Translations under genes and position numbers: made by a program
Shown: positions 1,559-28,992 of the stretch, piece after piece
Layout: each line of letters starts with the position of its first letter
How positions within the stretch are numbered: the stretch's first letter is position 1
The notes under the pieces: model-generated
Database searches by the model: none
Told to the model about the DNA's origin: nothing
Seen by the model: the letters and a program-made list of their open reading frames with translations, nothing else
Assembly: GCF_029338255.1 (NCBI RefSeq)
Contig: NZ_CP119787.1
Location: 2,587,631-2,619,630, forward strand
Direction: 5' to 3'
Origin: Haloarcula halobia
GTDB taxonomy: Archaea; Halobacteriota; Halobacteria; Halobacteriales; Haloarculaceae
DNA: 32,000 nt

Positions 1559-1644
1559 ACAAATATCATCGGCGATGCAGAATCTGAAGGTCACAGTGAC
1601 GCGGCATCCCACCGACTTAGGTACTGCACTGTCATAAGACATGC

Positions 1645-2112: not shown

Positions 2113-2162
2113 ATTGGCGGTAGTAAAAACCTTAACAACGGGTCGGCTACCTGTTCGAATAA

Positions 2163-3380: not shown

Positions 3381-3445
3381 CAAGCCTTGATCTTTAAAAA
3401 CGATTTCTCCCCATTCTCTCTTAACCTGCGAGGTCGCCCTCTTGG

Positions 3446-3697: not shown

Positions 3698-3756
3698 CCA
3701 ATTTCCGCCTTGAAGACAGCCGGCGAGAATTTTCTATCCGCAAAATTGATACTTGC

Positions 3757-6026: not shown

Positions 6027-6035
6027 TAACCAAAC

Positions 6036-6521: not shown

Positions 6522-6739
6522 ACGCGGATTTACCCCTCATCTCTATAGCAGGTTTACCGCTAAATATGCGCCTCAACTTTCAAAACAACTCCTGAGAGCC
6601 GCCTCGCCAGGAGACTTCGAATACCGCGCACGAATATGGCAAATGAACGCAACTCAGCAATCCGTCAACTGAAACTCACACACATGGTGTGCGTCTAGCA
6701 CACTCTGGACTCCACCAACCAGATCACCTCCGCCACGTC

Positions 6740-7864: not shown

Positions 7865-7885
7865 GTCTATCCACTCATATTGTCC

Positions 7886-12475: not shown

Positions 12476-12574
12476 TGAAATAAATAACCCCGGCTATTTT
12501 CGCTTTCTAGACTCCGGAACATTACGGATTACTAACTCCTCGTACTGTGTCTACTACTTGTGCTTATATCAAAA

Positions 12575-12600
12575 TTCCCGAATGTACAGACATCCGGGAA
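12575..12600 (-). terminator. Putative terminator or regulatory hairpin downstream of queC
   Basis: TTCCCGAATGTACAGACATCCGGGAA. On the minus transcript this forms an 11-bp stem (one G:U) with a 4-nt loop, followed by UUUU; it starts 37 nt past the queC stop. Confidence 0.5.
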
Positions 12601-12637
12601 GCAGCGTTACTCGATGTGATACGAGCCCTACCTTCCC

Positions 12638-13351
12638 TCACAGCTCAGCGTAATTCGGACGTTCCTTGTATTGAATAGGATCCTCGACGCCAGCTTCCTG
12701 GAAGGCTTTGAGGCGATAGGCACAGGCGTCACAGGTGCCACAGGCCGGGGCTTCTTCCCGGTAACAGCTCCACGTCAGTTCGTACGGGACATCCAGTTCG
12801 AGGCCGCGTTCCGCAATCGCTGTCTTCGTCCAGTCCACGAACGGCGCTACTAACTCGATCGATGTCTCCGGTTTCGTCCCCACGTCGATAACCTGCTGAA
12901 ACGCGTCAAAGAACTCGGGACGGCAGTCGGGATACCCGGAATAGTCCTCGCTGTGCGTTCCGATAAACACTGCACTGCAGTCATTGGCTTCGGCGTACGA
13001 AGTCGCCATTGACAGCAGGTTCGAGTTCCTGAACGGGACGTAACTCGACGGAATCTCATCGCTGCCGAGATCAACTTCCTCGACATCGATACTGTCGTCG
13101 GTCAGGCTGGAGGCACCGATCCTGGCCAAGTGGTCGGTCTCGATATGGAGAAAGTCAGCCACCTCCATATACTCGGCCAACTGTTGAGCACATGCAGACT
13201 CCTTGTCCGCTGTCTGCTGGCCGTAGGTCGTGTGGAGAAAATACAGGTTGTATCCTCGTCGCTGTGCCTCGAAGGCTGCCGTTGCACTATCCATTCCGCC
13301 CGATACCAAGACAACCGCACCGTCCCGCTCCTTCGTTTGTTCAGTCGTCAT
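12638..13351 (-). CDS. queC: 7-cyano-7-deazaguanine (preQ0) synthase QueC, 237 aa
   Basis: PP-loop VLVSGGMDSATAAFEA, Zn-binding CYREEAPACGTCDACAYRLKAFQEAG, adjacent to queE and queD. Confidence 0.95.
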   Translation of the reverse strand: MTTEQTKERDGAVVLVSGGMDSATAAFEAQRRGYNLYFLHTTYGQQTADKESACAQQLAEYMEVADFLHIETDHLARIGASSLTDDSIDVEEVDLGSDEIPSSYVPFRNSNLLSMATSYAEANDCSAVFIGTHSEDYSGYPDCRPEFFDAFQQVIDVGTKPETSIELVAPFVDWTKTAIAERGLELDVPYELTWSCYREEAPACGTCDACAYRLKAFQEAGVEDPIQYKERPNYAEL

Positions 13352-13360
13352 AGCTGTGTT

Positions 13361-14176
13361 CTATGTTTCTGGTGCGTCGTTCCAGAGGTCGACGTGGAGC
13401 CGTGGTGTATACTGGTAGCCGTGCTCCATAGCCACCTCCGCAGCCACTTCACGCGTTTCCGCCAATCGATCCCGGGTCGCTCCCTCCGGCATCAACAATA
13501 CGTCCGAATCCCGGATCGGAACACTGGCTGACTCCCGGAGGCGATCAACCAGCCGGTTGATCTCCGGCATATCGTCCCGGCCAGTCACCACGAACTTCAG
13601 CTGGAAGTCGTAGTTCTCCACCAACCGGCAGAGAGCGTCTATGTCTATCCGTCGATCCTTGTGCCGGTCCGCCCATTCGCCGTCGCCCTGTGGATCCTTC
13701 TCTTGGGTCGGCGTGCTGCTCGCCAGTTTTGGACTGATGCTCGCCAGGTCAATAGCGGTGTCTCGGTAGATGGTGCCGTTTGTTTCGACCGTTATATGAT
13801 AGCCGGCGGCACTGAGGCGTTCTATCAGGGTGACTATCTCATCGTGAATCATTGGCTCCCCGCCAGTCACCACGACATGGCCTGCTTCCCCGTGGTCGTT
13901 GACACGATCAACGATAGTGCCGACATCGAGCCAGGAGTGGGTTGGCTGCCAGCTGGTATGGTACGAATCACAGAACCAACACCGTAGATTGCACCCGCTG
14001 GTCCGAACGAAAACGGTCGGCATCCCCGCAAGCTTCCCCTCGCCCTGCAGCGAATAGAACAACTCATTAACCGGCAACCCCTCTTGGGCTTCCGTAGTGG
14101 TTACATCGTCATCGATCGTTTCGGCATCCGAGCTTACCGGCATCGCTCTACACCGGCCCTCCAGCAGCAAGTTCAC
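13361..14176 (-). CDS. queE: 7-carboxy-7-deazaguanine synthase QueE (radical SAM), 271 aa
   Basis: NELFYSLQGEGKLAGMPTVFVRTSGCNLRCWFCDSYHTSW, VVVTGGEPMIHDEIVTLIERL, VETNGT, SPKLASS. Confidence 0.95.
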   Translation of the reverse strand: MNLLLEGRCRAMPVSSDAETIDDDVTTTEAQEGLPVNELFYSLQGEGKLAGMPTVFVRTSGCNLRCWFCDSYHTSWQPTHSWLDVGTIVDRVNDHGEAGHVVVTGGEPMIHDEIVTLIERLSAAGYHITVETNGTIYRDTAIDLASISPKLASSTPTQEKDPQGDGEWADRHKDRRIDIDALCRLVENYDFQLKFVVTGRDDMPEINRLVDRLRESASVPIRDSDVLLMPEGATRDRLAETREVAAEVAMEHGYQYTPRLHVDLWNDAPET

Positions 14177-14615
14177 CAGTCTCCCGAACCTCGACTACGA
14201 TATCACTGACCGTGTCCGGCAACGTTTCTTTAAGCCGTCGTTCAAGAGTGATTCCCATCACTTCGGCTGTCGGTGGCTGATTGAGGACGATCAGAGCATC
14301 GCCGTCGCCACTGGCCTCAAAAGCCTCGATCAGTGGATCACCCTTCTCCACGAGAAATCGGTGATCCCACTCAGATAATACAGAAGTGATGTCTCCCTTG
14401 TCGATGACCCACCCTTCGCTGGTCAGAGTGCCAGTTATCGAGACGCTGACTTTGTAGTTATGCCCATGAGGACGGCTGCACTTGCCGTCATGGTGTAGAA
14501 TCCGGTGTCCTGTACTCAGGCGAATCGGCCGCTCACGTCCGACGTGTAAGGTTCGCTCAGTCTCGGAGAGATCCTTCGATGTGAAGAAGTACTCCTCAGA
14601 TAGGTCTTGGGCCAT
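14148..14615 (-). CDS. queD: 6-carboxy-tetrahydropterin synthase QueD, 155 aa
   Basis: LSTGHRILHHDGKCSRPHGHNYKVSVSITG (Zn His residues and catalytic Cys), WVIDKGDITSVLSEWDHRFLV, PPTAEVMGITLERRL. Confidence 0.93.
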   Translation of the reverse strand: MAQDLSEEYFFTSKDLSETERTLHVGRERPIRLSTGHRILHHDGKCSRPHGHNYKVSVSITGTLTSEGWVIDKGDITSVLSEWDHRFLVEKGDPLIEAFEASGDGDALIVLNQPPTAEVMGITLERRLKETLPDTVSDIVVEVRETGELAAGGPV

Positions 14616-14657
14616 ACTGCAATATTATCTGAGGCATACTTAACTTTGAACCACTTG

Positions 14658-14679
14658 CCGAAAGTTATGGTAACTTCGG
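14658..14679. promoter_or_regulatory. Near-perfect inverted repeat in the divergent queD / dpdA-like intergenic region
   Basis: CCGAAAGTTATGGTAACTTCGG: arms CCGAA(A)GTTA / TAACTTCGG with a single-nt bulge. Confidence 0.4.
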
Positions 14680-14755
14680 AAATGTGTCTGTGATGTGACG
14701 GTTTTGAGAACGAGAAGTTAATTGAGGGCAACGATAGAGTTACTACACAGGTCAT

Positions 14756-16660
14756 TTGATGTCGGCATTCAGGACTCTTGGAAAGGCTACATACGGCCGT
14801 CGAGGCGAAATAGACACGCCTGCCGGCCGTATCCAGACGCCCGAACTTCTGCCTGTGGTAAACCTAATCGGAGGAACGACAACAGAATCCGGTGGTATCT
14901 GGCGGTATACCCGTCGCCATCTCTTCGAGAGTGACAGCGTCCAGGGAATTATGTTTCAAGCGATGTCGTTTCTCGACTACAATCTCACCCCCGACAATTT
15001 GGAGGAGTGGCGTGAGAAGCCGCTCAAACAGCATTTCGAGGAGAGTGACGTTGAACCAGGGTTTGATCAACCGCTATTTATCGACTCGGGCGGATTTAAG
15101 CTGATGAACTCGACGAAGTTCGGACAGACGCCTGGCGAAGGCGGTAGTGAGAACGACTGGGATATTTACACGAATCCAGAGAGCATCTTGGACTTGCAGC
15201 TTGACTACGGCGCGGATATCATTGCCACGTTGGACTTTCCGATTCCACAGAACCTGAATAAGGAAGAAACCACTGAACGGATGGAGAAGAGTATCGATAA
15301 CGCGGTTGAGACTCTCCAGTTGCTCGACGAACGCGAACTGGAGGAGACGCCGTCGATGTATGTGGCCATACACGGCCACAACTACGAGGATGTCAACTGG
15401 TATGTCAGTCAATTTCTGGACCGCGCCGATGAACTTGATGAAGCCTTCGAGGGGTTCGCACTCGGTTCGCTCGTCCCTCTCAGTAGCTCCCCTGACACCT
15501 TGGTCGATATCGTCCAAGGGGCAAGAGACGCGATACCCGAGGACCGTTACGACGAAATCGCATTCCACGTCTTCGGCATAAGCGGAAGGCTGTGTCCTCT
15601 ACTATCTCTCCTCGGGGTAGATACGTTCGATTCGAGAAGCTATCAGTACGCAGCCCGGAACAAGAAATTCATCCACCCAGACACCTGGCAACGGATTAGC
15701 CTGGATCAGATTGATGACTGGGATGACTGGCCCTGTGACTGCCAGGCCTGTCAGAACATCCACTTAGACGATATGCGACACGCCCTGCTGGAATCCGAGG
15801 TCAGTAACAAGCCCATCGAAGGTGAACACGGGACTCATTTCAAGAGCGAATACTACGCGCAGATAGCTCATCATAACTTCGAGCTGTACAGCCGCCAGAT
15901 GCAACAAGTTCGTAACGCCATTGACGAGGGGCGTTTACTCGAACGTGTTGCCAACTTCGCTCAGGGAAAGAATATCGTAGAGAAGGGGTTGAAGCGGGCT
16001 CAACTACACAATCCTGAACTCCGTGAACAGCTTGCAGACATTGGTTATGAAGGGTTAGTTGCTGGACCGGATGACGAGACGTTCCAGACCAAGCTATCTA
16101 GCTTCCTCGAAGGGGTCGAGGACACGACACGCAAGAAACGGACCATATCGTTGAAGCACGGGCCAAATGACTTTGACATCCTCCAACGCAACGATTATCA
16201 GCCGCCGAGCGAGGCAGACGTACTGCTGATTCTACCCTGTAGCCAGGAGAAGCCGTATTCGGAATCACGGACACATCAGGCTGTCCTCTCCCGTCTTGAG
16301 GACTACCGTGAGCGATATCATAAGGTGTCCATCTCAGGGCTATACGGGCCGGTACCTGAGGACTTCGAGGAGGCCGACCCGGTGATGAGCTACGAATATG
16401 TATTGACGACTGCCGATGACGACCAAGTTGAACTTGTTGCGAACCGACTTGCTCGTTACCTGAACCGGTACGGTGAGCAATTTGACCAAATTATAGCCTA
16501 CACCACGAACAAAGCCTACCGACGTGCTATCGATACGGCATTCAACCGGTATGGCCGCGGTGAAATATACCCATCTGACCCGCGAGCTCTTCAGCTGACC
16601 GAGCATTTCCGTAATGAAAATATCGACGAGCTCGTTGGCCGATTTGCCAGTTCACAGTAA
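14756..16660 (+). CDS. DpdA-like TGT-family transglycosylase fused to a C-terminal ArcS-like (DUF5591-type) domain, 634 aa
   Basis: GRRGEIDTPAGRIQTPELLPVVNLIGG; PLFIDSGGF (D110); FGISGRLCPLLSLLGVDTFDSRSYQYAARN (D292); CDCQACQN...AHHNFELYSRQM zinc site; C-term ILPCSQEKPYSESRTH and GLYGPVPEDFEE. Confidence 0.88.
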   Translation: MMSAFRTLGKATYGRRGEIDTPAGRIQTPELLPVVNLIGGTTTESGGIWRYTRRHLFESDSVQGIMFQAMSFLDYNLTPDNLEEWREKPLKQHFEESDVEPGFDQPLFIDSGGFKLMNSTKFGQTPGEGGSENDWDIYTNPESILDLQLDYGADIIATLDFPIPQNLNKEETTERMEKSIDNAVETLQLLDERELEETPSMYVAIHGHNYEDVNWYVSQFLDRADELDEAFEGFALGSLVPLSSSPDTLVDIVQGARDAIPEDRYDEIAFHVFGISGRLCPLLSLLGVDTFDSRSYQYAARNKKFIHPDTWQRISLDQIDDWDDWPCDCQACQNIHLDDMRHALLESEVSNKPIEGEHGTHFKSEYYAQIAHHNFELYSRQMQQVRNAIDEGRLLERVANFAQGKNIVEKGLKRAQLHNPELREQLADIGYEGLVAGPDDETFQTKLSSFLEGVEDTTRKKRTISLKHGPNDFDILQRNDYQPPSEADVLLILPCSQEKPYSESRTHQAVLSRLEDYRERYHKVSISGLYGPVPEDFEEADPVMSYEYVLTTADDDQVELVANRLARYLNRYGEQFDQIIAYTTNKAYRRAIDTAFNRYGRGEIYPSDPRALQLTEHFRNENIDELVGRFASSQ

Positions 16661-16719
16661 TACGTAACCAACCATCCTGCAGACGTCTAGTGGTTATCCC
16701 CAAGAACTAAGGTCTCCTC

Positions 16720-17199
16720 ATGCGATCAGCAGAGTATATGACGTCGTTATTAGTCCAATCGTGTTCTGCAACGAAGGAACAGGTGGATACACCGGTTCCT
16801 GCTCTTGATTTGTACGATGGATACTTCTTCAGGATCATAAAGAAGGCATTGCGCACGGGTCGATTTCAGTCTGGAATTGACATTATGATTATATCTGCGG
16901 AGCACGGAGTTGTAGAACCTGATCAGGAAATCGAATATTATGACCGGCGGATGGACACAGAACGTGCTGACAAACTGAATGACCAAGTCGTCAGCGCTAT
17001 TGCCAGCAAAGTCACTACTAACGGGTATGACAAGGTATGGATCAATCTTGGAAAGGACTATCTTCCCGCTATCGATGGGGTTGAATCTGCCGTTGATGTA
17101 CCCGTTGACTATATCGAAGGCACCGGTATCGGAATGAAGGGAAAGCGGCTGAAGCACCTGGTTTCCAGTGGCCGTTCTATCCCGACGCACGGTGACTGA
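16720..17199 (+). CDS. DUF6884/YaaA-like protein, 159 aa
   Basis: LVQSCSATKEQVDTPVPALDLYDGYFFRIIKKAL...DIMIISAEHGVVEPDQEIEYYDRRM matches the DUF6884 pattern (SC..TK, pA..LY...F, ILSA.HG, P...YD). Confidence 0.7.
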   Translation: MRSAEYMTSLLVQSCSATKEQVDTPVPALDLYDGYFFRIIKKALRTGRFQSGIDIMIISAEHGVVEPDQEIEYYDRRMDTERADKLNDQVVSAIASKVTTNGYDKVWINLGKDYLPAIDGVESAVDVPVDYIEGTGIGMKGKRLKHLVSSGRSIPTHGD

Positions 17200-17203
17200 C
17201 ACT

Positions 17204-18451
17204 ATGGTTTCGTTTGATATTGTTGCAGAGGCGGGCGAGGCAAGACGTGGACAGCTCCGAATAAATGACCGGACTTTAGAGACTCCTCACCTATTCCCCG
17301 TCATCAACTTCTACGGCGGTGGTAATGAGGGTGCTCTGTTCGGTGGCGGCGTTCACCGCACGGTCAAGGAATTCCTAACTCACGATAACGAAATCACTGG
17401 TGGTGAAGACTATAGTGACCTTTTCCGCGGTGTGATGACGTCGATCTCCTCGCTGGCCGACTATGGCATTCGAGAGAAGAAACTGGACTGGTATCTCGGC
17501 AATGAAATCCGCGAGTGGGATTGTTTCAGCGACTATAATGGGATGATCTTCGCAGACTCCGGCGGCTACAAAATCCTGAAGCAGGGCGGTCTAGAAGGTC
17601 AGGACTTTGAGAAGGACATCGACCAGGATAAGGCGCTAGATATACAGCTGGCTCTTGGACCAGACATCGTGGTCAATCTGGACCACCCGATCCATCCGGA
17701 TGACGAGTTCGAGGAGCGGATCGAAAAGATGGAGCAGACAGCTGCCAACGCTGCTCGGTTCGCAGAGCGTCGTGACGAGGTTGACGGGGCCTGCTACCTC
17801 ACGGTGCATGGCTATTATGAAGCGATGCTCGAACGATCCTTCGACCTCATCGAGGACGAACTCTCAGAACCAATCCCCGAAGCGTTCGATGGGATTGCGT
17901 TGGGTAGCCTCGTCCCGCGAAAAGACAACGTCGAGATTCTCGTCGAAGCAGTATCTGATTGTAAACGGGAGATGCAACAGCGAGGTTACGAAGACCTCCC
18001 TCTACACGTATTAGGAATCTCGGGGAACGCAATGCCGCTACTCGTTGCTGTCGGGGCCGATACCTTCGATTCTGCCTCCTACCTACACCAAGCGATCAAC
18101 GGGAAGTATTGCGTCAACCTGTTCGAGACTGTTCCGATTGATGAAGCTAACTTCGACTCCTGTGAATGCCGCGTCTGTAACGACGACTTCCACCGAGCAC
18201 GTATGCGGAACGAGATGGAGGACCTGTATCAGAAGGATATCCTCGGCTCGGTGGCAGCGCATAATCTCGCGGTTCAGCAACGGGAGCTTCGCAAGTTTCG
18301 CCAATTGATCGCTGAGGGAGACAAAGAACGGGTTGCTGAGTATTTGGAGGAGGCAGTGAAGGATCAGAAAGGCTTCCGGAAGTTCGCCTACCAGCTAATT
18401 AACGAACGAATTAACCCATACTTCGAGGAAATAGACACAACCTATGCATAA
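17204..18451 (+). CDS. Second DpdA-like TGT-family transglycosylase, about 415 aa (ORF track start 17168; ATG at 17204 fits TGT N-termini better)
   Basis: MVSFDIVAEAGEARRGQLRI; MIFADSGGYK (D118 from 17204 start); GISGNAMPLLVAVGADTFDSASYLHQAINGKY (D289); CECRVCNDDF...VAAHNLAVQQ zinc site. Confidence 0.88.
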   Translation: MVSFDIVAEAGEARRGQLRINDRTLETPHLFPVINFYGGGNEGALFGGGVHRTVKEFLTHDNEITGGEDYSDLFRGVMTSISSLADYGIREKKLDWYLGNEIREWDCFSDYNGMIFADSGGYKILKQGGLEGQDFEKDIDQDKALDIQLALGPDIVVNLDHPIHPDDEFEERIEKMEQTAANAARFAERRDEVDGACYLTVHGYYEAMLERSFDLIEDELSEPIPEAFDGIALGSLVPRKDNVEILVEAVSDCKREMQQRGYEDLPLHVLGISGNAMPLLVAVGADTFDSASYLHQAINGKYCVNLFETVPIDEANFDSCECRVCNDDFHRARMRNEMEDLYQKDILGSVAAHNLAVQQRELRKFRQLIAEGDKERVAEYLEEAVKDQKGFRKFAYQLINERINPYFEEIDTTYA

Positions 18452-19979
18452 GACACCACAAGTCAACGAGGTCAACGAGTTCATCGAGATAGCTAGCGAC
18501 TTTGAAGATCCGTTAGAGGTCATTAGGGAAGCTCTGTCAAATTCCTACGATGCGAACGCAACGCAGGTCGACATCAATATTGAACAAGATGACGAGGGGC
18601 GGAACACCTTGGTCATCAAGGACAACGGCCACGGGATGGACGAAGATGACCTCTCGTCGTTCTTCGACCTCGGGAACTCGAACAAAAATGACGCTATCGG
18701 GTACAAAGGCCACGGCACCAAGATCTACTACAAGAGCGATAAGGTCCGTGTCGAGACCGTCAAGGACGGGACGCGGATCGAATCGGTGATGAACCAGCCG
18801 TGGGCGAAGCTGAACAACCGCGAACTCCCCACGTACTCCATCGACACGACAGACGTCGACGAGCCATCACGTACCCGGATCGAGGTACACGGTTTCCGTG
18901 CTGGCCAGGGGTTCGACCCAAAACAGCTCACCTACAACAAGATTGAGCATTATATCAAGTGGAAAACGATCGGCGGGTCGACGGCGTGGTACTTCAACGA
19001 CGACTTCCACGAGATGGAGATCAAAGTTGAGCTTTCACCCTCGATTGACGACACGCAGGATCCGATAGAGACCGATAACCGGTTGAAATTCCCGGCTGAA
19101 AACCTGGATCCGGACGGTGAGTTCGTGGCTGAAGAGATGTGTAAGCACTACCCACCACAGGAACTGACCGTCACGCTCGATGACAGCCGTGAATTGACGG
19201 TTGAGGTCGTCGGGATGGTCGGTGGTAAGGAAGCTCGGAACAAGCTGCCGACCTATGGGAAGCATTCCGCCCAATTCGGTATCTGGCTGGCGAAGGATCA
19301 CATCAAGGTCGAACGGTACAACGATGCTATCGGTGCGGACAACGAGTTCTTCCACTTCTTCTTCATCGCTAACTGCCAGGGTCTCGAACTCTCCGCGAAT
19401 CGAGAAAAGATCCGGAACAAATCCGGCGATGTCTACCAGGCCATCACGGACGAACTCGACCGGTTTATGACCAAAGTATGCCAAGATTCCTGGTACCAGA
19501 ACTATATCGAACGCCGCAAGCTGGAGGACAAGAAACGCAGCATCCAATCGCAGGAAAGTACGCTCGAAGAACGTCTCCAGCGGACCAGGGATGAAGGTGG
19601 ACTCTCACCATCAAATCCTGCGGAGGTCATTGCCGCCCTGGAACGATACAGTGCAAATGGAGCGCCGGAGACCGTCCGGATCGCAGACTTCCAAATGGAT
19701 GATGAAGTGAACGCGATCCTTGAGACCGACAACGGTTTCGAGAACGCTGCCCTCCACGTCAAGCTGAGTGATTTCTTCGAGGAAGAAGCTGCACTGTCAC
19801 ACATCGACCGGCTCATCTGCTGGAAACTCGGTGACTTAGATGCACTCACAAAGATTGAACGCTCCTCATACCTCGGAGAACCTATCCGGTTCGACTTCCA
19901 GAGCAGGGAGGTCCATTACGGCGGGGACACGAAGCGGACGATCCCAATCTTGGAGTTAGCCGATAGCGTCTCTTCGTAG
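18444..19979 (+). CDS. GHKL (MutL/Hsp90/MORC-like) ATPase, 511 aa
   Basis: VIREALSNSYDANATQVDINIE (N-box), LVIKDNGHGMDEDDLSSFFDLGNSNKND (G1), IGYKGHGTKIYYKSDKV (G2). Overlaps the upstream stop by 8 nt. Confidence 0.85.
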   Translation: MHKTPQVNEVNEFIEIASDFEDPLEVIREALSNSYDANATQVDINIEQDDEGRNTLVIKDNGHGMDEDDLSSFFDLGNSNKNDAIGYKGHGTKIYYKSDKVRVETVKDGTRIESVMNQPWAKLNNRELPTYSIDTTDVDEPSRTRIEVHGFRAGQGFDPKQLTYNKIEHYIKWKTIGGSTAWYFNDDFHEMEIKVELSPSIDDTQDPIETDNRLKFPAENLDPDGEFVAEEMCKHYPPQELTVTLDDSRELTVEVVGMVGGKEARNKLPTYGKHSAQFGIWLAKDHIKVERYNDAIGADNEFFHFFFIANCQGLELSANREKIRNKSGDVYQAITDELDRFMTKVCQDSWYQNYIERRKLEDKKRSIQSQESTLEERLQRTRDEGGLSPSNPAEVIAALERYSANGAPETVRIADFQMDDEVNAILETDNGFENAALHVKLSDFFEEEAALSHIDRLICWKLGDLDALTKIERSSYLGEPIRFDFQSREVHYGGDTKRTIPILELADSVSS

Positions 19980-19987
19980 ATCCTTGG

Positions 19988-21220: not shown

Positions 21221-24200
21221 TCTTCTTCACCTAGTTCACTTCGGACGCGTTGCTTAATTAGGGTTCGACGAAGGGACTGGATATCATCGTCCTCCCCGTT
21301 CAGGGCGTTAATGACCTGTTCAAAGTCCGAATCCGACAGCGCCATCAAGGAATCGTCAACATCCACTTCCTCCGTCTCAAGGATCGTATCGGGTGATTCT
21401 GATGCCCCATACCTGTCGAGCACCTCCGAGATCTCGTCCTCGTCGTAAGCCTCCTCTTCGATATGCTGCTTGATCTGGTTCCTCCACCTGTCCCACGGAT
21501 TCTTAAACTGGTCGTAGTCGAAGTCAGTAGCTGATTCGTCGAGGGCGTCCTCGCAGCTATCTAGCACCCGGTCACCTTGCCCAGACCACGAACTCCCCTC
21601 AGGAAGCCGGTCCTCCTGATTCTCCAAGTACTCGCGTTCCTCCTCTACCTGTTCCTCAAGCTCTTCGATTTCGTCCCCGATCTCCCCAATGAGGAACTCC
21701 TTATCAGACTCCAGATCCGCAACGTCATCGTCCGCCTCATAGTCTTCAACGTCAGGTATGATCTGTCGTCGATGCCGTTCGAGTTCAGATACAGTCGGGT
21801 CCAGATCCCGCCCATCATCACTGAATTCGGACAGCACGTCGCCAATTGACAGATCTTCGATTAAGTCTTCGACAGTGGTTCGGTCATAGTGGTCGTTGAC
21901 CGTCGAGACAACAGAGACATCGATATCATCGAGGTTCAGATCAGGATCGGTGCCCTTCAGTGAGGTGTAAGTCGATTCTAATTCCTCGACATCGTTCATC
22001 AACTCGTATACATCCTCAGCCGCTTCCAACTGCTCGACCAACTGCTCGACAGCCGGTGTAATCAGGAACAATACCTCGGTTTCCAGTTGTCCAAGGGGAC
22101 GCAACTCCGCGATATAGTTGGGAACTTTGGTGCCGCTGAAAGCAGGACTGCTTCCCAGAGTCCTGAGCCGCTGGTCGAGATTGCCATGTTCTACGGAGAG
22201 GTCCGTATCGCAGCGTTCTTCTAAGTCATCAAGCCGGCCAGCTGCTGGGATATCATCGACGTCTGTGTAGGCCTCGCGGAGTGATGCAAGCTCGTCAGTA
22301 TCAATGTCCTCTCCGCGGGCGCTCTTCAGCACCTGCTTCTCAACCGTTTTGCGGAGATTATCCTGGATCGTTTCCCATCTTGCTTCTTGATCGCTTTCAA
22401 CGCCGATGATCGTCTCGGTATCGTCGAGAATCCACTCCTCGGTGTAGTCCCCAATGACGAACAGGAGGAATATGAGTGCCCGAGTAACGCTGTCGATCTC
22501 CGTCGTCCCGAAAATGAGGTCATACACCTCGTCTTCGGTGACCTCATCATCCTCCAGCATTTCTTTCAAGTCGTCTATATTACTCTGGAAGTTGGCTGTA
22601 TAGTTATCAGTGATATCGCCATCATTCACGAAGGACTCGTTCTCCTCAAAGTCCTCAAGAGTATCACGGAGGTCATCACCAAACATCGGATCAAAGCTCA
22701 AATACGGATAATTAGGCATTATGGCCTCAGGGATGTCTGGGTCAGTGAATTCGAGCGAGTCCTCGTACTTCAGATGCTGCACAGCATAGGCGAGATTCAT
22801 TGCTTCCTTCCCGTTGTAGGTGCCGTCGTACCCCAACCGGTTGAGAACATAATCAGATCTGTATATCCCGGATAGACCGTCATTCAGGTTTACCGGCGAG
22901 AAGAGGTAGTTGGTTTGGGTAAGCATCCGGAGCTGGCCGTCAGGGAGCCGTTCCTCGCCTGGATTTTCTTCCTCAAGACCTCGGATCAGACAGAGTTTCG
23001 TCCAGAGCAGGTACCGGTCGAATTCAGACGAACTGGGGTACTCCGAACGAAGCGTTGAGAGTACCTCTTCGGTTTGATCCCGTTCCGTCTGATCATGCCG
23101 AATATCCGGGTTCAGGTCATTTTCTAGGTCCTCAGCAAGGTCTTCAGCTCGTTCATAGCGTTCAGATACCTCATACAGTGCAGCGACATCGTCGTCCTCG
23201 TCGGCCTCTGTGAGGCAGACGATGAACTCAAGGGCAGTTGGCGGGTCATCCGATGAATCGATCTGCAGTTCCTCCGGTGTCTCCTTGAAGCACAAATAGA
23301 CCTTGTCCGTGTAGCTCAGCTGGCCATCGACATCGAATTCGATGTAGCTTGAGCTATCCGCATCAAACGGGATGTCGAAGACTGTTCGGGCGTCATACCA
23401 TTCCCGATAGAGCTGAATCGGGCTGGTACTTCGCAAATCTTCATCAGTGATGACGTCGTTGATTTCTTCGGAGAGATTGACCTCGGAGTCTGGAGCAGCT
23501 TCTGCCGTTAGTTCACCTGAGTCAAATATCAGGCTACCGTCATCATCAATATCGAAGTAATCGGTTCTCGTGCTTGCGGTGTCGATCAGGTGAGTTAATT
23601 CCTCGTCACTGATGTCTATCGTATACTGGTCTGCGAGGTTTCCCAGCTGTTCGGAACTGTAGAGAGCGGGATTTTGACTCCGGTACAGAATTCCGTCTTC
23701 AGCTACCGCAAAAAGTAGCCGTTGTTGCGTGTATGTACAGTCATCAAAGTCTCCCTCAATACGCTCCTCAATGCTATCTCGTCCCGGGAGGTCATCGAGG
23801 TTCCCGCGATCCAACTCTCCCAGTTCATCACGCACCTCGTCGCCATACCGATACAGCATGTCGAGGTCGATAATACCGTCCTGATCCCATCGCTTGAAAT
23901 ACTCGTTCGCAATCAGTTTGAAGTCCCGGAATCCCCGAACAACGCGGTCTCCGCCTTCCTCCCTGTACCCCTCTGTGATCGATAAAGCGAAATTCAGGAA
24001 ATCCTCAGTGAAGGGATACACATAGGTCTCGTCATCGTCTGCATTCAGACGGGTTTCCCAGTCGTCCTTATCATAGTCTTGGAGCAGTGGAAGGGCGTAG
24101 CGGCGATATAGGTCGGCAAAGAGTTCCTTGCTCTCCTCCCGAGACAGGTCAATATTATACGCAATACTCTCTCTAACTCGATCGGTCAGGTCACTTCTTG

Positions 24201-25059
24201 CGTTCAGGATTTCCGGCCAGTCTTGGAGTGGGAGCGTATTTGCAATGAGAAGATATGGTGGATCCTCAACGTCTTCGAACCCCACCACGGACTTCCGAAT
24301 CATTTTGCGCACAATCGCCCGGAGTTTCAGTTCTTCATCAGTCACCGGCCCGATATCGAATGCCTGCTCAAACTCATCCAGGCAGATAACCGGATATCGG
24401 CCTGTCTCCTCTTTATAAAGCCGAGTGAACCACGTAAGTGTCTCGTGGATATCTCCTGTAGTCAGCTCCTTCACAATCATTGCGACATCAGCAACCGTTG
24501 AAGGATCGTCAAACACCTCCTCCAGGCGATCCTGCTGTGAGGACGGCAACGCCTGAAGATCGCTCACCGTGAGATTCGCCTTCTTCTGTTGGAACTCATC
24601 AACTAGGTCACCTTCGGACAGCCCATCAGCAGGGGACACCAGTCCCTCAAAAACCCGTCCGAGCATCCGATTCGGGCTGTCACAGTCCTCAAGGCTAACC
24701 TCAACTGGATCAATAGGAGTCTCTCCATAGGTGAATTGATCATATTCCACCTGTTCACCATCCTTCGTAAATTCCTTCGATTGGCTGCACAGGTCAACCA
24801 GATTGTTCATCAGCACCGTCTTGCCGGAACCGTATGCTCCGTGCAGGACAACCCCCGGACTCTGTTTATCGGAAAGGCCAGAGTGGATCCCCCGGATGAT
24901 AGCATCCCGCTTGTCGGTGAGGATAAAACCAGAGTCTGACTCGATAAAGTCCCGGAAATTAGGATGTTCGTCCGTAGCAAGGGTTTCGCAATCTCGCTCG
25001 AATCCCTTGATGGTCTGTGCCTCAAGGAGCGTGACGATGTGCGTTTGTGCTTGATCCAT
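21217..25059 (-). CDS. Very large P-loop ATPase, BrxC/PglY/DpdH-like by size and context, 1280 aa
   Basis: Walker A GVVLHGAYGSGKTVLMNNL; Walker B YPVICLDEFEQAFDIG; C-terminal acidic coiled coil EIGDEIEELEEQVEEEREYLENQEDR; overlaps herA-like start. Confidence 0.75.
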   Translation of the reverse strand: MDQAQTHIVTLLEAQTIKGFERDCETLATDEHPNFRDFIESDSGFILTDKRDAIIRGIHSGLSDKQSPGVVLHGAYGSGKTVLMNNLVDLCSQSKEFTKDGEQVEYDQFTYGETPIDPVEVSLEDCDSPNRMLGRVFEGLVSPADGLSEGDLVDEFQQKKANLTVSDLQALPSSQQDRLEEVFDDPSTVADVAMIVKELTTGDIHETLTWFTRLYKEETGRYPVICLDEFEQAFDIGPVTDEELKLRAIVRKMIRKSVVGFEDVEDPPYLLIANTLPLQDWPEILNARSDLTDRVRESIAYNIDLSREESKELFADLYRRYALPLLQDYDKDDWETRLNADDDETYVYPFTEDFLNFALSITEGYREEGGDRVVRGFRDFKLIANEYFKRWDQDGIIDLDMLYRYGDEVRDELGELDRGNLDDLPGRDSIEERIEGDFDDCTYTQQRLLFAVAEDGILYRSQNPALYSSEQLGNLADQYTIDISDEELTHLIDTASTRTDYFDIDDDGSLIFDSGELTAEAAPDSEVNLSEEINDVITDEDLRSTSPIQLYREWYDARTVFDIPFDADSSSYIEFDVDGQLSYTDKVYLCFKETPEELQIDSSDDPPTALEFIVCLTEADEDDDVAALYEVSERYERAEDLAEDLENDLNPDIRHDQTERDQTEEVLSTLRSEYPSSSEFDRYLLWTKLCLIRGLEEENPGEERLPDGQLRMLTQTNYLFSPVNLNDGLSGIYRSDYVLNRLGYDGTYNGKEAMNLAYAVQHLKYEDSLEFTDPDIPEAIMPNYPYLSFDPMFGDDLRDTLEDFEENESFVNDGDITDNYTANFQSNIDDLKEMLEDDEVTEDEVYDLIFGTTEIDSVTRALIFLLFVIGDYTEEWILDDTETIIGVESDQEARWETIQDNLRKTVEKQVLKSARGEDIDTDELASLREAYTDVDDIPAAGRLDDLEERCDTDLSVEHGNLDQRLRTLGSSPAFSGTKVPNYIAELRPLGQLETEVLFLITPAVEQLVEQLEAAEDVYELMNDVEELESTYTSLKGTDPDLNLDDIDVSVVSTVNDHYDRTTVEDLIEDLSIGDVLSEFSDDGRDLDPTVSELERHRRQIIPDVEDYEADDDVADLESDKEFLIGEIGDEIEELEEQVEEEREYLENQEDRLPEGSSWSGQGDRVLDSCEDALDESATDFDYDQFKNPWDRWRNQIKQHIEEEAYDEDEISEVLDRYGASESPDTILETEEVDVDDSLMALSDSDFEQVINALNGEDDDIQSLRRTLIKQRVRSELGEEE

Positions 25060-25066
25060 AGTATCT

Positions 25067-25381
25067 TTATGTAGAAGGGCGGACTCGGAAGCGCATTAGT
25101 CCGGATTTGATGTATGATTCCTCGGGGACAACATAAACACGGCGACCAGCGACGTGCTCTTTAAGTGGACGTGTCATCAGGACGATTTTATCTCCCTCCC
25201 CATCATCTTCATCATCTGGACCGACGAACGCGATATCGAAGTCGCCGGAGAGACGGAACTGGAGCTCGTAGACGAATTCGAATACAGATCCCTGGGCAGC
25301 TTTGGCGTCCCCTGCTGTTACGATAACGAGTCTATTCCAGGGTTTGTTCAACTCGTCCATTACGGGTGCTACAAGCGCCAT
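25067..25381 (-). CDS. Orphan small protein, 104 aa
   Basis: In-operon ORF with 6-nt and 7-nt gaps to its neighbours; no recognised motif. Confidence 0.65.
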   Translation of the reverse strand: MALVAPVMDELNKPWNRLVIVTAGDAKAAQGSVFEFVYELQFRLSGDFDIAFVGPDDEDDGEGDKIVLMTRPLKEHVAGRRVYVVPEESYIKSGLMRFRVRPST

Positions 25382-25387
25382 GAGAGG

Positions 25388-26197
25388 TCAGTCGACTACC
25401 TCCATAATTTTCCTGCCGTGGTACCTACGGGTTGAAATATGTCCACCGTCCTCTAATTCACCTAACACTTCATCGATGCGTGATGAATCCCAGTCAAAAT
25501 CCATTTTCAGGATATGTTCAAGATCCGAATACGGCATATGGCGGTCATTCTCTTCGAGAATCTGTAACACGATCTCTTCGTCATTCTGTCGGAAGTAGAG
25601 GTACTGCGTGGGGTCGATTTTCCATCGCCGGCCCTCCTTTTTCAGTATTCCCAGGTCATTGAGAATGCCGCCGATCGTCCCTGCGGTGTTCGAATTCCCC
25701 TTTGCATCGAATTTCATCATGTCATTGATCGCATTTCCTCGGTTGGTGCCGAGATCGTAATTCCGCTCTGCAATTCGTTTGTCGACACCTTTGATGGCTC
25801 TCCAGAAATATACGAAGTTGTCCCGGGATTTCTCGACTAGGAGTCGGAAGGCAGCGACATCCTGAGGTGAGGCCTCAACGAGGTCACGCCCTTCCTCGGT
25901 GAGATAGATCCCGTCCTCACGTTGTTCGATGACTTCTACGGAGCCGGCGTATCCGGGCAGCGTGAAGGTGAACCACTCGTCCAGCGGATGACTGAATAGA
26001 TTGTTGTCGCGTTCTTCGTTGATGGTCTCCATCTGTTCACGGAGCTCTTCTTCAGTGATACCGGGATTTCTGGAGACTAAGCGGACAAACCGCTGTAGAC
26101 CTTCGATAACCCGTTGGTTCCCTAACTGGGGGAGAGCGAGATCCAGGTCCTCTTTCTTTGCCGCTGCTCCGACAGCCTCGTCAGTACTGTCACTCAT
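25388..26197 (-). CDS. Probable winged-helix protein of BREX/Dpd-type operon, 269 aa
   Basis: LVSRNPGITEEELREQM, AGTIGGILNDLGILKKEGRRWKIDP, MPYSDLEHILKMDFDWDSSRIDEVLGELEDGGHISTRRYHGRKIMEVV look like tandem wHTH units. Start overlaps the upstream stop (ATGA-type). Confidence 0.65.
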   Translation of the reverse strand: MSDSTDEAVGAAAKKEDLDLALPQLGNQRVIEGLQRFVRLVSRNPGITEEELREQMETINEERDNNLFSHPLDEWFTFTLPGYAGSVEVIEQREDGIYLTEEGRDLVEASPQDVAAFRLLVEKSRDNFVYFWRAIKGVDKRIAERNYDLGTNRGNAINDMMKFDAKGNSNTAGTIGGILNDLGILKKEGRRWKIDPTQYLYFRQNDEEIVLQILEENDRHMPYSDLEHILKMDFDWDSSRIDEVLGELEDGGHISTRRYHGRKIMEVVD

Positions 26198-28992
26198 GAT
26201 TGTAGTTCAAATTCTAAGCGGACACCACATAATTCTCCAAGTGACGTCCCGCCGTGGTGGCCGTGGTCGGTTGCCCGTGGTCCCTTAACCGCATACCGTG
26301 ACAGCGTCCCGATCGTTGGCGAATCAAATATTGCCTCGCCCGAAGGTAGATCAACGTCAATACCGGGCTGCTGTTCCAGTCGTGTCATCGTGTCGTTTTC
26401 GACACTACTCGTCCATCCGTACATGTACTTTGACCCAGAGTTTAGATAGGGCTTAACCCGGACTGCCTCCGCGATTGTCTCATCTGAGAGTGTTTCGTCA
26501 TCCGAGATATAGCGACGTGCCTCATCAAATGGAATTGATCGGCCCGAGCCTGCGAGGCCAAGGGGGACACGGGTCGTATTGGATCTGGTTTTCCCCTCTA
26601 ACCGTTCGCAATTCAACTCGAATACCTCGTCCACATCCAAGGCTTCCGTCAGCATGGACGTATTGAACCGGTAGTCGGATCGGACAGAATCGATGATTTG
26701 CTCCCGCTCATACGTGGTGATTTTCCCGTGGTCCGATGCAACAACGAGAGATATGGATTCAGACTCAAATTCAGGTTCTGCATCTTCGTACGCATTCTCG
26801 ATAGCTGATTCAATATCTTCGTAGATCTGATCAATAAATCCCCCCAGCGCCTGGTAGTAGTTAGAGAACTCAGAGAAATCGAGCGCCGTGTGCAGGAAGG
26901 AATCGAAATCGCTGACGTATAATACGAAATCCGACTTCATCGCCTCTCGGGCTTCTGGCGGCCGGGACGGATCAGTGTACACCTCAATGCGTTGCCGAAG
27001 CGCGTTCTCTAGTTCACCAGTCAACTCTTCTCTCACATCACGGAGAGATGCCTGCGACCCGGTCAGATCTCGTGCCGTTGTCTGGCGAATATCCGCTATC
27101 TGCTCGGCAACTCGTGTAATGCCCCGTTCGGAAAGATGGGTGGACTGGATGAGCTCGAAACTGTGGGGGGTTGTCCGGTCGATGAAATCGAATGCATCGG
27201 AGCCATAGTCCTGATGGAGGTCATAGACATTGTCGCCCCGACGCGGCGCCCATCCATAGATTCCCGTCTCGGAGGCAGGAAGTCCAGAGAGAAGTGTTGC
27301 CATCGCAGAGGGTGTATACGAGGGAAGATTCGAATAGAGCACATCGACATCCGCAGGGTCTCTCCCCAAGGCATCCAACTGCTGAATCACCTCGAAGTCT
27401 ATCAGGCCGAAGCTATCAATAACCAGGAAGATGCGGACGTCGCTCTCCGACCCCGGTTCTAACAGATCTGCGATGTGGGGATGCTCGTTCGAGCTGACAA
27501 TTTCTGGATAGGATGAGACAACAAGGTCGGTAAACGCATCGTATTTCCGCACCAGCGTTGTCAGCAAATCCGACTCAGACGGAGCAGTCGGTGTCGATTC
27601 CAAGACGAACTCAGACCACCGACGAAGGAACTCAGGAAGATTCTCCAACGAGACTTCCATCGCCTGGATCTCTGCCGCTTCTTCCTCCAACTCAAGGTGA
27701 TCGAGCAGCCGGCCCCTCGCCTCATTCATCACGGTCAAGTGAGGATAGGCAACGACCTCCTCCGCTTCTAATTCCATTGCCGCCCGCCAATACGGTACAG
27801 CAATATCTATCCACTCCTCACCAGAGAGTTCCTGGTTAACGGCTTCCCCACCAGAGATCATAACAAGCTCTGTAACGTGCTGGAGGAAACGCCCAAATCG
27901 ATCAAGGGCGTCCCGGGTCGGTCGCTCCCCCAGTTCGCCGCTCGCAAGTTGCTCGGCCTCGTCACCAAAGGTATCCTGAGCTGCGGCGAAACGCCGTGAT
28001 ATCTCGTCGTCGTCAGCCCCAGCAAACACGAGCCCAAAGTGGGACGCTAAAAGCTCTCCTGCATCAGAGGGATCAGCGTACCGTAACTCGATGTCATCGC
28101 CGCCGATCTCGTTGACCGCTGCCTGCAGCGTATCGATAAAGTCCCGGTCAACTGTTGTCGGGGCAAGATCCTCGATATTCCGTGAGGATTCCCGAGAAAT
28201 CACGGTTTCCAAAGCTAACCGCCGAAACGTCACAATCACCTCCTCCCCCAGCTGCCGAAGATGCAGTAAGACATCGCGCTTCCCCGTGCCTGTCGGGATA
28301 TCTTCGCCATAATGATCGACACACTGCACGGTGAAGACGTTCCGCTGCTGATTATCTTCCAGCCGATCAAACACCGTCTTCTCCTGGAGGTTCAGAACAC
28401 GCAGAAAGAACTCGGCTAATGGTTCAGGAGCGTCCGAGAGTTCATCGTACTGGATGTAAACATCCTCATAAACGTCTTCCTGCGTTCGCTGCAGTGCTCC
28501 AGTGTCGACCGTTTTCCCGACAGCACCGGCTACCACAAGCCGGGTCAGATACTCAGCCAACGACAAATCGTGTCTATCAAGCGAGGCATCGACTGTAGCC
28601 CCGTAGGCCTCTCGCTGAGCAACGTTCGAATCCTCAATCCCCAACCGCGCGAACTCCAAAAACGATGAGCCGACGACATCGTCTCGTCGATCGATGAAGG
28701 CGGGCGGACAAATAACAACTGCAGAGTTAGCGCCCGGCTCGCGGGCTATGAAATCGATCGCACTGTGTACTGTTTCTTCGAATTCTTGGAAGGTACGGGG
28801 ATAATGAAGACATCGCACGGAATCATCCGCGAGTTCTGTTAAAAACGTCCGGCCCAGCGGAACGGGGTGTGTAGATGGAACGTAGTACAGGATTCCGACC
28901 GTTTCAGTGATCTTTGAGCTGGTTTCGGTGAGGTTGGTAATACCGTCGAATTGGAGAGAGGGTTCAGCAGAATCCTCTAAATCCGTGATCAT
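26194..28992 (-). CDS. PglZ-like / alkaline-phosphatase-superfamily protein, 932 aa
   Basis: VRIFLVIDSFGLIDFEVI, NLPSYTPSAMATLLSGLPASETGIYGW, SDFDSFLHTALD, ISLVVASDHGKITTY, ATDHGHHGGTSLGELCG metal-site motifs. Confidence 0.75.
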   Translation of the reverse strand: MITDLEDSAEPSLQFDGITNLTETSSKITETVGILYYVPSTHPVPLGRTFLTELADDSVRCLHYPRTFQEFEETVHSAIDFIAREPGANSAVVICPPAFIDRRDDVVGSSFLEFARLGIEDSNVAQREAYGATVDASLDRHDLSLAEYLTRLVVAGAVGKTVDTGALQRTQEDVYEDVYIQYDELSDAPEPLAEFFLRVLNLQEKTVFDRLEDNQQRNVFTVQCVDHYGEDIPTGTGKRDVLLHLRQLGEEVIVTFRRLALETVISRESSRNIEDLAPTTVDRDFIDTLQAAVNEIGGDDIELRYADPSDAGELLASHFGLVFAGADDDEISRRFAAAQDTFGDEAEQLASGELGERPTRDALDRFGRFLQHVTELVMISGGEAVNQELSGEEWIDIAVPYWRAAMELEAEEVVAYPHLTVMNEARGRLLDHLELEEEAAEIQAMEVSLENLPEFLRRWSEFVLESTPTAPSESDLLTTLVRKYDAFTDLVVSSYPEIVSSNEHPHIADLLEPGSESDVRIFLVIDSFGLIDFEVIQQLDALGRDPADVDVLYSNLPSYTPSAMATLLSGLPASETGIYGWAPRRGDNVYDLHQDYGSDAFDFIDRTTPHSFELIQSTHLSERGITRVAEQIADIRQTTARDLTGSQASLRDVREELTGELENALRQRIEVYTDPSRPPEAREAMKSDFVLYVSDFDSFLHTALDFSEFSNYYQALGGFIDQIYEDIESAIENAYEDAEPEFESESISLVVASDHGKITTYEREQIIDSVRSDYRFNTSMLTEALDVDEVFELNCERLEGKTRSNTTRVPLGLAGSGRSIPFDEARRYISDDETLSDETIAEAVRVKPYLNSGSKYMYGWTSSVENDTMTRLEQQPGIDVDLPSGEAIFDSPTIGTLSRYAVKGPRATDHGHHGGTSLGELCGVRLEFELQS

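Follow-up and report, generated by a model that had tools for sequence, protein, structure and literature searches.

Does the DNA between positions 2,587,631 and 2,619,630 of the Haloarcula halobia contig NZ_CP119787.1, a stretch of 32,000 nucleotides that we refer to as the window, encode one defense system or two that lie side by side? The question is raised by a group of 7-deazaguanine genes (queC, queE, queD, an ArcS-like gene and a stand-alone gene of the tRNA-guanine transglycosylase, or TGT, family, a DUF6884 gene and a GHKL ATPase gene) that meets a convergent five-gene operon for a PglZ-like protein, a winged-helix-like protein (wHTH269), a 104-aa protein (p104), a 1280-aa ATPase and a HerA-like ATPase. 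An initial annotation, made from the sequence alone, had proposed that the two sets form a hybrid in which base exchange takes over the marking role of the BREX methylase. All of the open reading frames (ORFs) that it had listed were located where it had placed them, and the direct abutment of the two sets was confirmed, the stop codons of the HerA and GHKL genes lying 8 bp apart; within the five-gene operon, neighbors overlap by 4 bp or are separated by gaps of 6-7 bp. A Pfam scan of 22 of the window's large ORFs, which for the most part do not overlap, also agreed with the annotation that no DNA methyltransferase is present, and neither a methyltransferase nor a PAPS reductase domain was found among these ORFs or in the related loci examined. 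From gene content, catalytic motifs, a structural likeness of the large ATPase to BrxC and genomic linkage, all of which are observed, we consider it rather probable that the modification module and the BREX-like operon constitute one restriction-modification-type antiviral system, a variant of the BREX-Related Capture (BRC) plan. We hold with similar assurance that the sequence describes a composite restriction-modification-type defense island in a GC-poor region of the Haloarcula chromosome.

Evidence on whether the two sets belong together came from their neighborhoods elsewhere. The operon, entered via its ATPase, was surveyed in three species genomes and nine metagenome contig sets; 12 of 13 independent contexts, representing no fewer than six arrangements, had a GHKL gene and a TGT-family gene next to it. 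The linked contexts were the window (L001), L003/L004, L005/L006, L007/L025, L009, L016/17/19/22, L026, L049, L053, L054 and L055/56; linkage is probable at L057, where the contig ends within a gene at the GHKL position. At L003 (Halorussus halobius) and L004 (a plasmid of Halorubrum xinjiangense), TGT-DUF6884-ArcS and queDEC lie upstream of the PglZ-like gene, and L005/L006 are arranged in a similar manner with extra genes inserted. A GHKL-TGT-DUF6884 set diverges from the operon at L007, HerA is followed by queCED and ArcS-DUF6884-TGT-GHKL at L009, and at L053, from the window's own clade, the order is DUF6884-TGT-GHKL-ArcS and the ArcS-like gene meets HerA tail to tail; the gene order of L054 differs again. 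Linkage held even at L049, where the PglZ-like protein has fallen to 23% identity. The initial annotation had named independent occurrence of the two operons as grounds for abandoning a joint system; seen from the PglZ-operon side, they are linked in 12 of 13 contexts despite rearrangement, which is far more than clustering within defense islands would lead one to expect, and a functional link between the two operons is strongly supported by these neighborhoods.

The simplest of these loci, L055/L056 and L049, carry solely a GHKL gene and an ArcS-like gene (TGT plus DUF5591) beside HerA; separate TGT and DUF6884 genes are absent from these variants (9814-13267 in L055 and 10158-13336 in L049). 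The ArcS-like protein, with its TGT catalytic motifs retained, may therefore be self-sufficient, that is, an enzyme that both inserts and converts the base. A Schlafen AlbA_2 protein of 447-453 aa lies beside the operon at L005 (3873-5216), L006 (3462-4805) and L002 (17254-18615) and is absent from the window.

Viewed from the TGT side, in a survey of 39 metagenome loci, the neighborhood was organized differently. Wherever a metagenome locus was long enough, DUF6884-TGT-GHKL appeared as an invariant triad in one orientation, usually with an ArcS-like gene and queCDE nearby. In about 17 of these loci the triad is accompanied by an alternative recurring set consisting of a 1370-1576-aa DEAD/Helicase_C/MZB helicase (with PADLOC matches to DruE, BrxHI and DpdJ), a DpdK-like PLD protein (1e-11), a ResIII helicase, a 970-aa AAA/STAND protein and several proteins without assignment. 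A complete example is L052, on plasmid NZ_CP119784.1 of Haladaptatus sp. YSMS36 (282-29430). This locus contains two large DEAD helicases, a PLD protein, DUF6884-TGT-GHKL, a homolog of the window's nuclease-helicase gene Hel1529 and two ArcS-like genes, which the PGAP annotation labels only as tRNA-guanine transglycosylases, helicases and hypothetical proteins. The module is therefore not exclusive to the operon, since most TGT-side loci pair it instead with Dpd/DISARM-like helicases and a DpdK-like PLD protein. Because the triad is found with either the operon or the helicase/PLD set, these gene neighborhoods indicate one shared marking module and restriction modules that are interchangeable.

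The window's module begins with three genes for the synthesis of 7-cyano-7-deazaguanine (preQ0), all on the minus strand. QueC, the preQ0 synthase (12638-13351), matched the Pfam QueC family at 5.4e-73 and passed TIGR00364 (183.6 bits vs a cutoff of 150.3). The QueE-like 7-carboxy-7-deazaguanine synthase (13361-14176) matched Radical_SAM at 5.9e-16, and its best NCBIfam matches were all to QueE families, below their cutoffs. QueD, the 6-carboxytetrahydropterin synthase (14148-14615), matched PTPS at 1.5e-18 and the TIGR03367 QueD model at 1.8e-19. The remaining module genes are on the plus strand. The ArcS-like protein of 634 aa (14756-16660) combines a TGT domain (7.5e-31) with DUF5591 (1.6e-19), both by Pfam; the TGT domain keeps the catalytic DSGGFK and the zinc motif CxCxxC..H, and DUF5591 carries at residues 494-507 the sequence PCSQEKPYSESRTH, an exact fit to the ArcS signature PCX3KPYX2SX2H (PMC5699537). 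Against the ArcS model it scored 127 bits (cutoff 440), with only positions 287-401 of 575 covered, and it stops 39 residues past DUF5591, so that it has no counterpart of the C2/PUA region with which ArcS binds tRNA. We predict that it acts on preQ0 in DNA.

The triad follows directly. The DUF6884 protein (16720-17199; Pfam 1.6e-14), with a YaaA/DUF328-like fold, matched the PADLOC models PDC-M57A (4e-11) and DpdC (1e-4), contains the motifs CSATK and ISAEHG, and has homologs with precomputed matches to PF03883; the relationship of DUF6884 to YaaA is described in PMC11701544. It is a candidate counterpart of DpdC, acting on a base that has been flipped out. The stand-alone TGT protein (17204-18451; Pfam TGT 1e-30) has 415 aa from the called ATG at 17204 and 427 aa from the GTG at 17168 that opens the mechanical ORF. 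It has the invariant motifs DSGGYK, LDHP and DTFDS and an invariant zinc site (C320/C322/C325/H353), and its DpdA matches were weak (PADLOC 3.5e-6; NCBIfam equivalog 26.8 bits vs a cutoff of 200). Against the arcTGT model, the stand-alone and ArcS-like proteins scored 124.5 and 114.9 bits (cutoff 350). Neither TGT-family protein reaches the equivalog cutoff for arcTGT, ArcS or Tgt, and C2/PUA domains are absent from both; in keeping with the initial proposal, neither is a canonical tRNA enzyme, and on sequence grounds the stand-alone TGT is a candidate DpdA-like exchanger of guanine for preQ0 in DNA. A viral origin of this protein was considered and rejected, as no relatives were found in 2.9 million IMG/VR contigs or in the 50,697 phage genomes of INPHARED. 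The GHKL ATPase gene (18444-19979), which always comes after the TGT gene and here overlaps it by 8 bp, encodes a MutL/MORC-type protein (HATPase_c_3 9e-16) with invariant Bergerat motifs, and its profile matched the PDB sequences of MutL (4e-7) and MORC2 (1e-4).

The five operon genes are all on the minus strand, and none of their products matched a BREX model of Pfam, NCBIfam or PADLOC at threshold. The PglZ-like protein of 932 aa (26194-28992) has a C-terminal alkaline-phosphatase-superfamily domain of the PglZ type (residues ~520-930), preceded by a further N-terminal region of ~520 aa. In Pfam it matched Phosphodiest at 4.8e-8 and PglZ (PF08665) at E = 0.095, with 13 bits against a cutoff of 25; two distant family members with the same operon context, P0036 and P0040, reach that cutoff (25.0 and 26.6 bits, respectively). 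The best PDB match of a broadened family profile was the PglZ domain of PorX (7e-5), with the metal-binding Asp, Thr, DHG and HGG motifs collinear in the alignment. Residues D526, T560, D754-H755 and H913 are invariant in the family, T560 in the Thr motif and H913 in the HGG motif. BREX PglZ is a nuclease dependent on metal, and it needs T538 and H741 (T272 and H500 in PorX) for activity (PMC12205998), and by motif position T560 and H913 would correspond to these residues. The name PglZ-like given to this protein by the initial annotation thus agrees with family profile and motifs, yet the match is weaker than the name implied, the protein's own PglZ hit having an E value of 0.095. The motifs make it a candidate nuclease or phosphodiesterase effector. 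The family is rare, with 19 representatives among 1.84 billion proteins, and a plasmid search with the ATPase and P0040 gave no match.

The AAA+ ATPase of 1280 aa (21217-25059) gave weak P-loop matches only in Pfam, and its N-terminal half is BrxC/ORC-Cdc6-like. It has 19 full-length homolog clusters, at 31-37% identity except for a closer group at 79-97%, with Walker A (G74-T81) and Walker B (D228-E229) invariant throughout. An AF2 model of residues 1-1200 reached a pLDDT of 82, and the top Foldseek match of this model was Acinetobacter BrxC (9zdx_A, E = 7.4e-5, 585 columns), with archaeal and eukaryotic ORC/Cdc6 proteins (ORC2, then ORC1) close behind. As modeled, the protein is an ORC/Cdc6-type AAA+ ATPase of BrxC style. 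The earlier label of BREX-like therefore holds as a BrxC/ORC likeness at the level of structure but not as a match to BrxC in Pfam, NCBIfam or PADLOC. The HerA/FtsK-type ATPase (19988-21220), the last gene of the operon, matched DUF87 at 2.9e-12, has the Walker A sequence GKRGSGKS, and in PADLOC matched mad8 best (3e-24, near full length) along with several HerA models.

The two small proteins are conserved with the rest of the operon. For wHTH269 (269 aa; 25388-26197), termed wHTH-like at the outset, a C-terminal winged-helix match does exist but is weak (DUF7343, E = 0.0025); p104 (25067-25381) lies between the wHTH and ATPase genes in all loci of the family, had no match in Pfam, NCBIfam, PADLOC or PDB, and contains no Walker A motif or P-loop. 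The gene order of winged-helix protein, small protein and ATPase resembles brxA-brxB-brxC, and profiles of wHTH269 and p104 retrieved nothing in Pfam or PDB as counterparts of BrxA or BrxB. Sequence and profile searches of the PDB with the PglZ-like protein, the ATPase, p104, wHTH269 and the flanking protein p425 yielded nothing useful except the PorX match.

The operon proteins have diverged to unequal extents. The PglZ-like protein, wHTH269, p104 and the ATPase of the window are 33-40% identical to those of the other clade and HerA 74-75%, and the same rank order of identities was found inside the other clade. Thus, the four upstream operon proteins change in concert and at a much higher rate than the HerA motor; the uneven divergence of the sensing and effector parts (21217-28992) relative to HerA suggests that cassettes were replaced or that these parts are under diversifying selection. 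The Que, ArcS-like and DUF6884 proteins of window-type modules (L003, L005, L009 and L016) are 68-86% identical to those of the window, and the TGT and GHKL proteins of L007 and L026 form part of a second clade and have 48-54% identity to their window counterparts.

Nuclease-type genes flank both sets, again on the minus strand. Hel1529 (7886-12475), 163 bp downstream of queC, encodes a fusion of a PD-(D/E)XK nuclease with an SF1 helicase (AAA_11/AAA_12; Pfam), with PADLOC matches to MkoA (2.7e-31) and, weakly, DpdJ (3e-12). On the Haladaptatus plasmid (L052), a full-length homolog (35% identity, E = 0) faces GHKL in convergent orientation, and in L002 the operon has a partial homolog nearby; Hel1529 would probably act as a second effector of restriction, linked to the modification module. 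The initial annotation had recognized neither Dpd helicases nor a PLD nuclease, which holds for the PLD protein throughout the window but not for the helicases, Hel1529 with its DpdJ match lying just outside the range considered. Directly downstream of Hel1529 is p374 (6740-7864), with a predicted PD-(D/E)XK fold, and 830 bp upstream of the PglZ-like gene is its paralog p425 (29822-31099), with the same predicted fold; the p374 and p425 regions are 23% identical over 391 aa (tblastn, E = 2e-7) and have in common the invariant motif YPD...VE(A/V)KG...QA, that is, a nuclease-type PD...ExK...Q. Neither protein matched a family in Pfam, NCBIfam or PADLOC, or an entry in the PDB. In p425, residues D69, E96, K98 and Q117 are invariant, and its homologs (36-69% identity) adjoin the ArcS-like gene in six loci (L029, L030, L033 and L040-L042). 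It possibly belongs to the modification/restriction island, and p374 is a possible accessory nuclease or reader.

For the way in which these proteins might work together, we infer the DNA substrate, the chemistry of the mark, the self/non-self logic and the roles of the individual proteins. QueD, QueE and QueC would make preQ0 from a GTP-derived pterin, with GTP cyclohydrolase supplied by the host, and the DpdA-like stand-alone TGT would swap guanine in double-stranded DNA for preQ0, the GHKL protein, translationally coupled to it, providing ATP-dependent DNA handling as DpdB does in bacteria. The nitrile of DNA-bound preQ0 would then be converted by the DUF6884 protein with its CxxxK motif, the ArcS-like enzyme, or both, to an amide or an amidine, with dADG, dG+ or some derivative akin to them as the product; homologs of ArcS in phages are associated with dG+, dPreQ0 and dADG in DNA (PMC6884629). 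The five-gene operon would form a BREX-like complex that recognizes DNA without the mark, in which the BrxC/ORC-like ATPase, wHTH269 and p104 would sense DNA, HerA would translocate it, and the PglZ-type metallo-phosphodiesterase would nick or degrade unmarked DNA, probably with Hel1529, p374 and p425 as additional or back-up effectors. Because a reader that attacked the mark written by its own host would be suicidal, restriction of unmarked DNA is the favored logic. The more specific proposal that haloarchaea write a 7-deazaguanine (possibly 2'-deoxyarchaeosine) through the triad and that a diverged PglZ/BrxC-like/HerA machine reads it is one that we advance tentatively, as having somewhat less than an even chance of being right.

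Several points weigh against reading the two gene sets as one system. Of the 39 TGT-side loci, no more than 6 contain the operon, and the helicase/PLD set is found in its place in most of the longer ones; as far as these neighborhoods tell, the modification module clearly does not depend on the operon. At L002 (Halorubrum glutamatedens), the operon has no TGT gene within 10 kb. A GHKL-like gene at this locus was considered as a remnant of the triad and rejected, because the Bergerat motif region alone aligns and the protein is of another family. The clades of the PglZ operon and those of the TGT do not vary together, L003-type operons accompanying both TGT types, which is unexpected if a sequence-specific mark had to be matched; the effector may therefore not need to match a TGT-specific sequence motif. 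At the protein level, the PglZ and BrxC assignments stand on weak profile and structural matches, BrxC being barely ahead of ORC in the structural comparison (target-normalized TM-score 0.38); the AF2 model of the PglZ-like protein failed (pLDDT 34, with 5 close homologs aligned), and equivalents of BrxA, BrxB and STAND were not demonstrable by profile searches and hhalign; casting the GHKL protein as the ATPase partner of the transglycosylase, in a DpdB-like role, is pure inference by analogy. The loci in which the module has its own helicase/PLD partners, the operon of L002, the uncoupled clades and the recurrence of Hel1529 beside GHKL in L052 would all suit independent neighbors, with the module an archaeal Dpd-like restriction-modification system that employs Hel1529, p374 and p425, and the operon a modification-independent HerA "capture" system. 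Random neighbors within an island would not be expected, however, to stay linked through such rearrangement and divergence, in 12 of 13 contexts, at least six arrangements, down to 23% identity and even in the minimal loci, and we regard this explanation as unlikely.

The plasmid location of the related loci L004, L051 and L052, the low GC of the whole window (0.47-0.59) and the anti-restriction service of phage DpdA systems (PMC6884629) could instead point to a modification that shields a mobile element (plasmid, provirus or island) from host restriction, or to a TGT that strips bases from invader DNA. Such a reading is at odds with the TGT having no relatives among the IMG/VR contigs and phage genomes, with module flanks made up of nucleases, helicases and ATPases typical of restriction rather than of replication or structural genes, and with the location of the window locus on contigs of chromosomal scale, one of 911 kb in the Haloarcula assembly GCA_042662805.1 and one of 3.35 Mb (the PglZ-like protein being recorded on the latter); we judge it distinctly improbable. 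Chance placement of ordinary tRNA archaeosine paralogs (arcTGT, ArcS and QueCDE) beside a defense operon would account for the arcTGT and ArcS models being the best NCBIfam matches, for the exact ArcS catalytic motif and for the PGAP name "tRNA-guanine transglycosylase" given to homologs. Scores far under the cutoffs (124 vs 350 and 127 vs 440 bits), the lack of C-terminal C2/PUA domains in both TGT-family proteins and the constant company of a DNA-type GHKL protein and DUF6884, in low-GC islands or plasmids with defense genes, speak against it so consistently that we give it very little credence. A single restriction-modification-type system, made up of the modification module and the BREX-like operon, remains the reading that we prefer.

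Its extent is probably greater than the range originally delimited, 12638-28992, which was too narrow: Hel1529, p374 and p425 are probably members of the island, and the recurrence of Hel1529 and p425 at related loci together with the paralogy of p374 and p425 places it at 6740-31099 at the least. The two paralogs bracket the whole island. A GC fraction of 0.47-0.59, as found over the whole window, is low for a Haloarcula chromosome, which suggests that the island was acquired; neither tRNA genes nor Rfam families were found in the window. A 122-aa ORF between p425 and the PglZ-like gene (29370-29738, plus strand) has no matches, is uncalled in the source annotation and is probably not real, leaving 830 bp of intergenic DNA upstream of the operon. 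At the other end of the window, six co-oriented plus-strand genes (p426, p155, p405, p213, p572 and p161; 278-6521) look like a separate defense system. Among their products, p426 is a PDDEXK_4 nuclease (5.9e-8), p155 has a weak EVE-domain match (0.023) and p572 is an archaea-specific SMC-related protein (7.5e-23); a p155 homolog (58% identity) adjoins queD in the metagenome locus L024, and a p426 homolog occurs in L005.

Should the proposed scheme be correct, base exchange would be a third self-marking chemistry of BREX-type systems, after methylation and phosphorothioation, and the window would hold the first such system keyed to a swapped base, as well as the first 7-deazaguanine, perhaps archaeosine, in cellular archaeal DNA; neither a 7-deazaguanine there nor the DUF6884-TGT-GHKL triad was found described in the open-access literature. 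The triad is a concrete candidate for how a DpdA-type enzyme works without DpdB, and its occurrence with at least two unrelated restriction sets amounts to natural swaps that could show how readers of modified bases evolve. The restriction modules that operate on a single mark appear interchangeable, taking the form of PglZ/HerA, of a Dpd/DISARM-like helicase with PLD, or of a nuclease-helicase. Because the effector proteins are invisible to the BREX models of Pfam, PADLOC and NCBIfam, current defense finders, and probably the BRC survey as well, miss this lineage.

How, then, does the locus compare with known systems? With the bacterial Dpd system (dpdA-K; Thiaville 2016, Gedara 2023) it has in common the coupling of preQ0 synthesis genes to a DNA transglycosylase of the TGT family, here a predicted one, an ATPase as its obligatory partner, a modifier of the YaaA/DUF328 fold and adjoining helicase/nuclease genes, and sister haloarchaeal loci even carry DpdJ-like helicases and a DpdK-like PLD protein. 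It differs in that the ATPase partner is a MutL/MORC-type GHKL protein instead of the ParB-like DpdB (no ParB-like protein was found in the window by Pfam), the modifier, DUF6884, is no more than a distant relative of DUF328/DpdC, the locus has an ArcS-like enzyme in addition, the TGT scores under the DpdA equivalog cutoff, and the main restriction set is PglZ/BrxC-like/HerA. MADS (mad1-8) is likewise a multi-gene, modification-based defense, and mad8 is the best PADLOC match of the window's HerA; MADS, however, has mad6, mad7 and mad8 together and uses an N6-adenine methyltransferase, and membership was rejected because no operon protein matched any other mad model in PADLOC. The resemblance to BREX/Pgl (types 1-6) lies in the PglZ-type phosphodiesterase, the large BrxC-like AAA+ ATPase, the small DNA-binding proteins and a restriction-modification-like logic with a non-cleaving, "exclusion"-style core, and in BREX type 4 the methylase has already been exchanged for phosphorothioation. 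Unlike BREX, the window has HerA and has neither the PglX methyltransferase nor PAPS reductase, BrxA, BrxB and BrxL are undetectable in it, and its proteins fall under threshold for the Pfam PglZ and BrxC models.

The closest comparison is with BRC, described in January 2026 in a computational study (Nucleic Acids Res, PMC12839542). The initial annotation had known of no described system with the window's gene set; the plan of PglZ, BrxC-like ATPase, HerA and TGT was anticipated there. BRC comprises PglZ, DUF6079 (BrxC-like), an active STAND NTPase, DUF4007, HerA/FtsK and, in a subset of its loci, the modification genes GNAT and TGT, occurs in 45 taxa including haloarchaea, and was proposed by its authors to use 7-deazaguanine for self-marking (PMC12839542). 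Among the haloarchaeal taxa in the portion of the BRC supplement available to us, neither Haloarcula nor the three operon-bearing species is named. With a GNAT sequence from the supplement, we found a BRC-type locus, L050, on plasmid NZ_CP098519.1 of Haloplanus sp. HW8-1 (3025-15865). It begins with queCED, TGT (326 aa) and a 282-aa protein, continues with STAND (138 aa), a BrxC_BrxD ATPase (1363 aa) and a 380-aa protein, and ends with HerA, GNAT and a QueF-like gene.

BRC and the window both bring together in one locus a PglZ-type domain, a large BrxC/ORC-like ATPase, HerA/FtsK and a TGT-family enzyme. L050 QueC, QueE and QueD are 65-72% identical to the window's, and its HerA, a protein universal in BRC, is 35% identical to that of the window (E = 4e-63). 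The 380-aa PglZ-type protein of L050, which had no Pfam match at E <= 0.01, aligns with the PglZ-type motif region of the window's family (hhalign probability 85%). Other pairings drew no such support: p104 was rejected at the sequence level as a homolog of BrxB/STAND (the active STAND NTPase of BRC being a BrxB homolog of ~140-170 aa with a P-loop), as it has no Walker A motif and reached an hhalign probability of 0.6% against the BRC STAND alignment, and homology of the ATPase to the BRC ATPase (11.5% against L050) and of wHTH269 to DUF4007 (0.3% against the L050 282-aa protein) was unsupported. Unlike BRC, the window contains no P-loop STAND (BrxB-like) protein, GNAT or QueF-like gene, and DUF4007, DUF6079 and BrxC_BrxD were undetected in it by Pfam; its TGT belongs to another subfamily (~27-31% local identity to that of L050, the 31% match having E = 9e-5), its gene order is unlike that of BRC, and it has a GHKL protein, DUF6884, an ArcS-like protein and the 932-aa PglZ-like protein. 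Since STAND and GNAT are absent, the Pfam models are unmatched and GHKL, DUF6884 and the ArcS-like protein are added, the window is, as judged by gene content, a sister lineage built on the BRC plan and not a member by the parts that define BRC.

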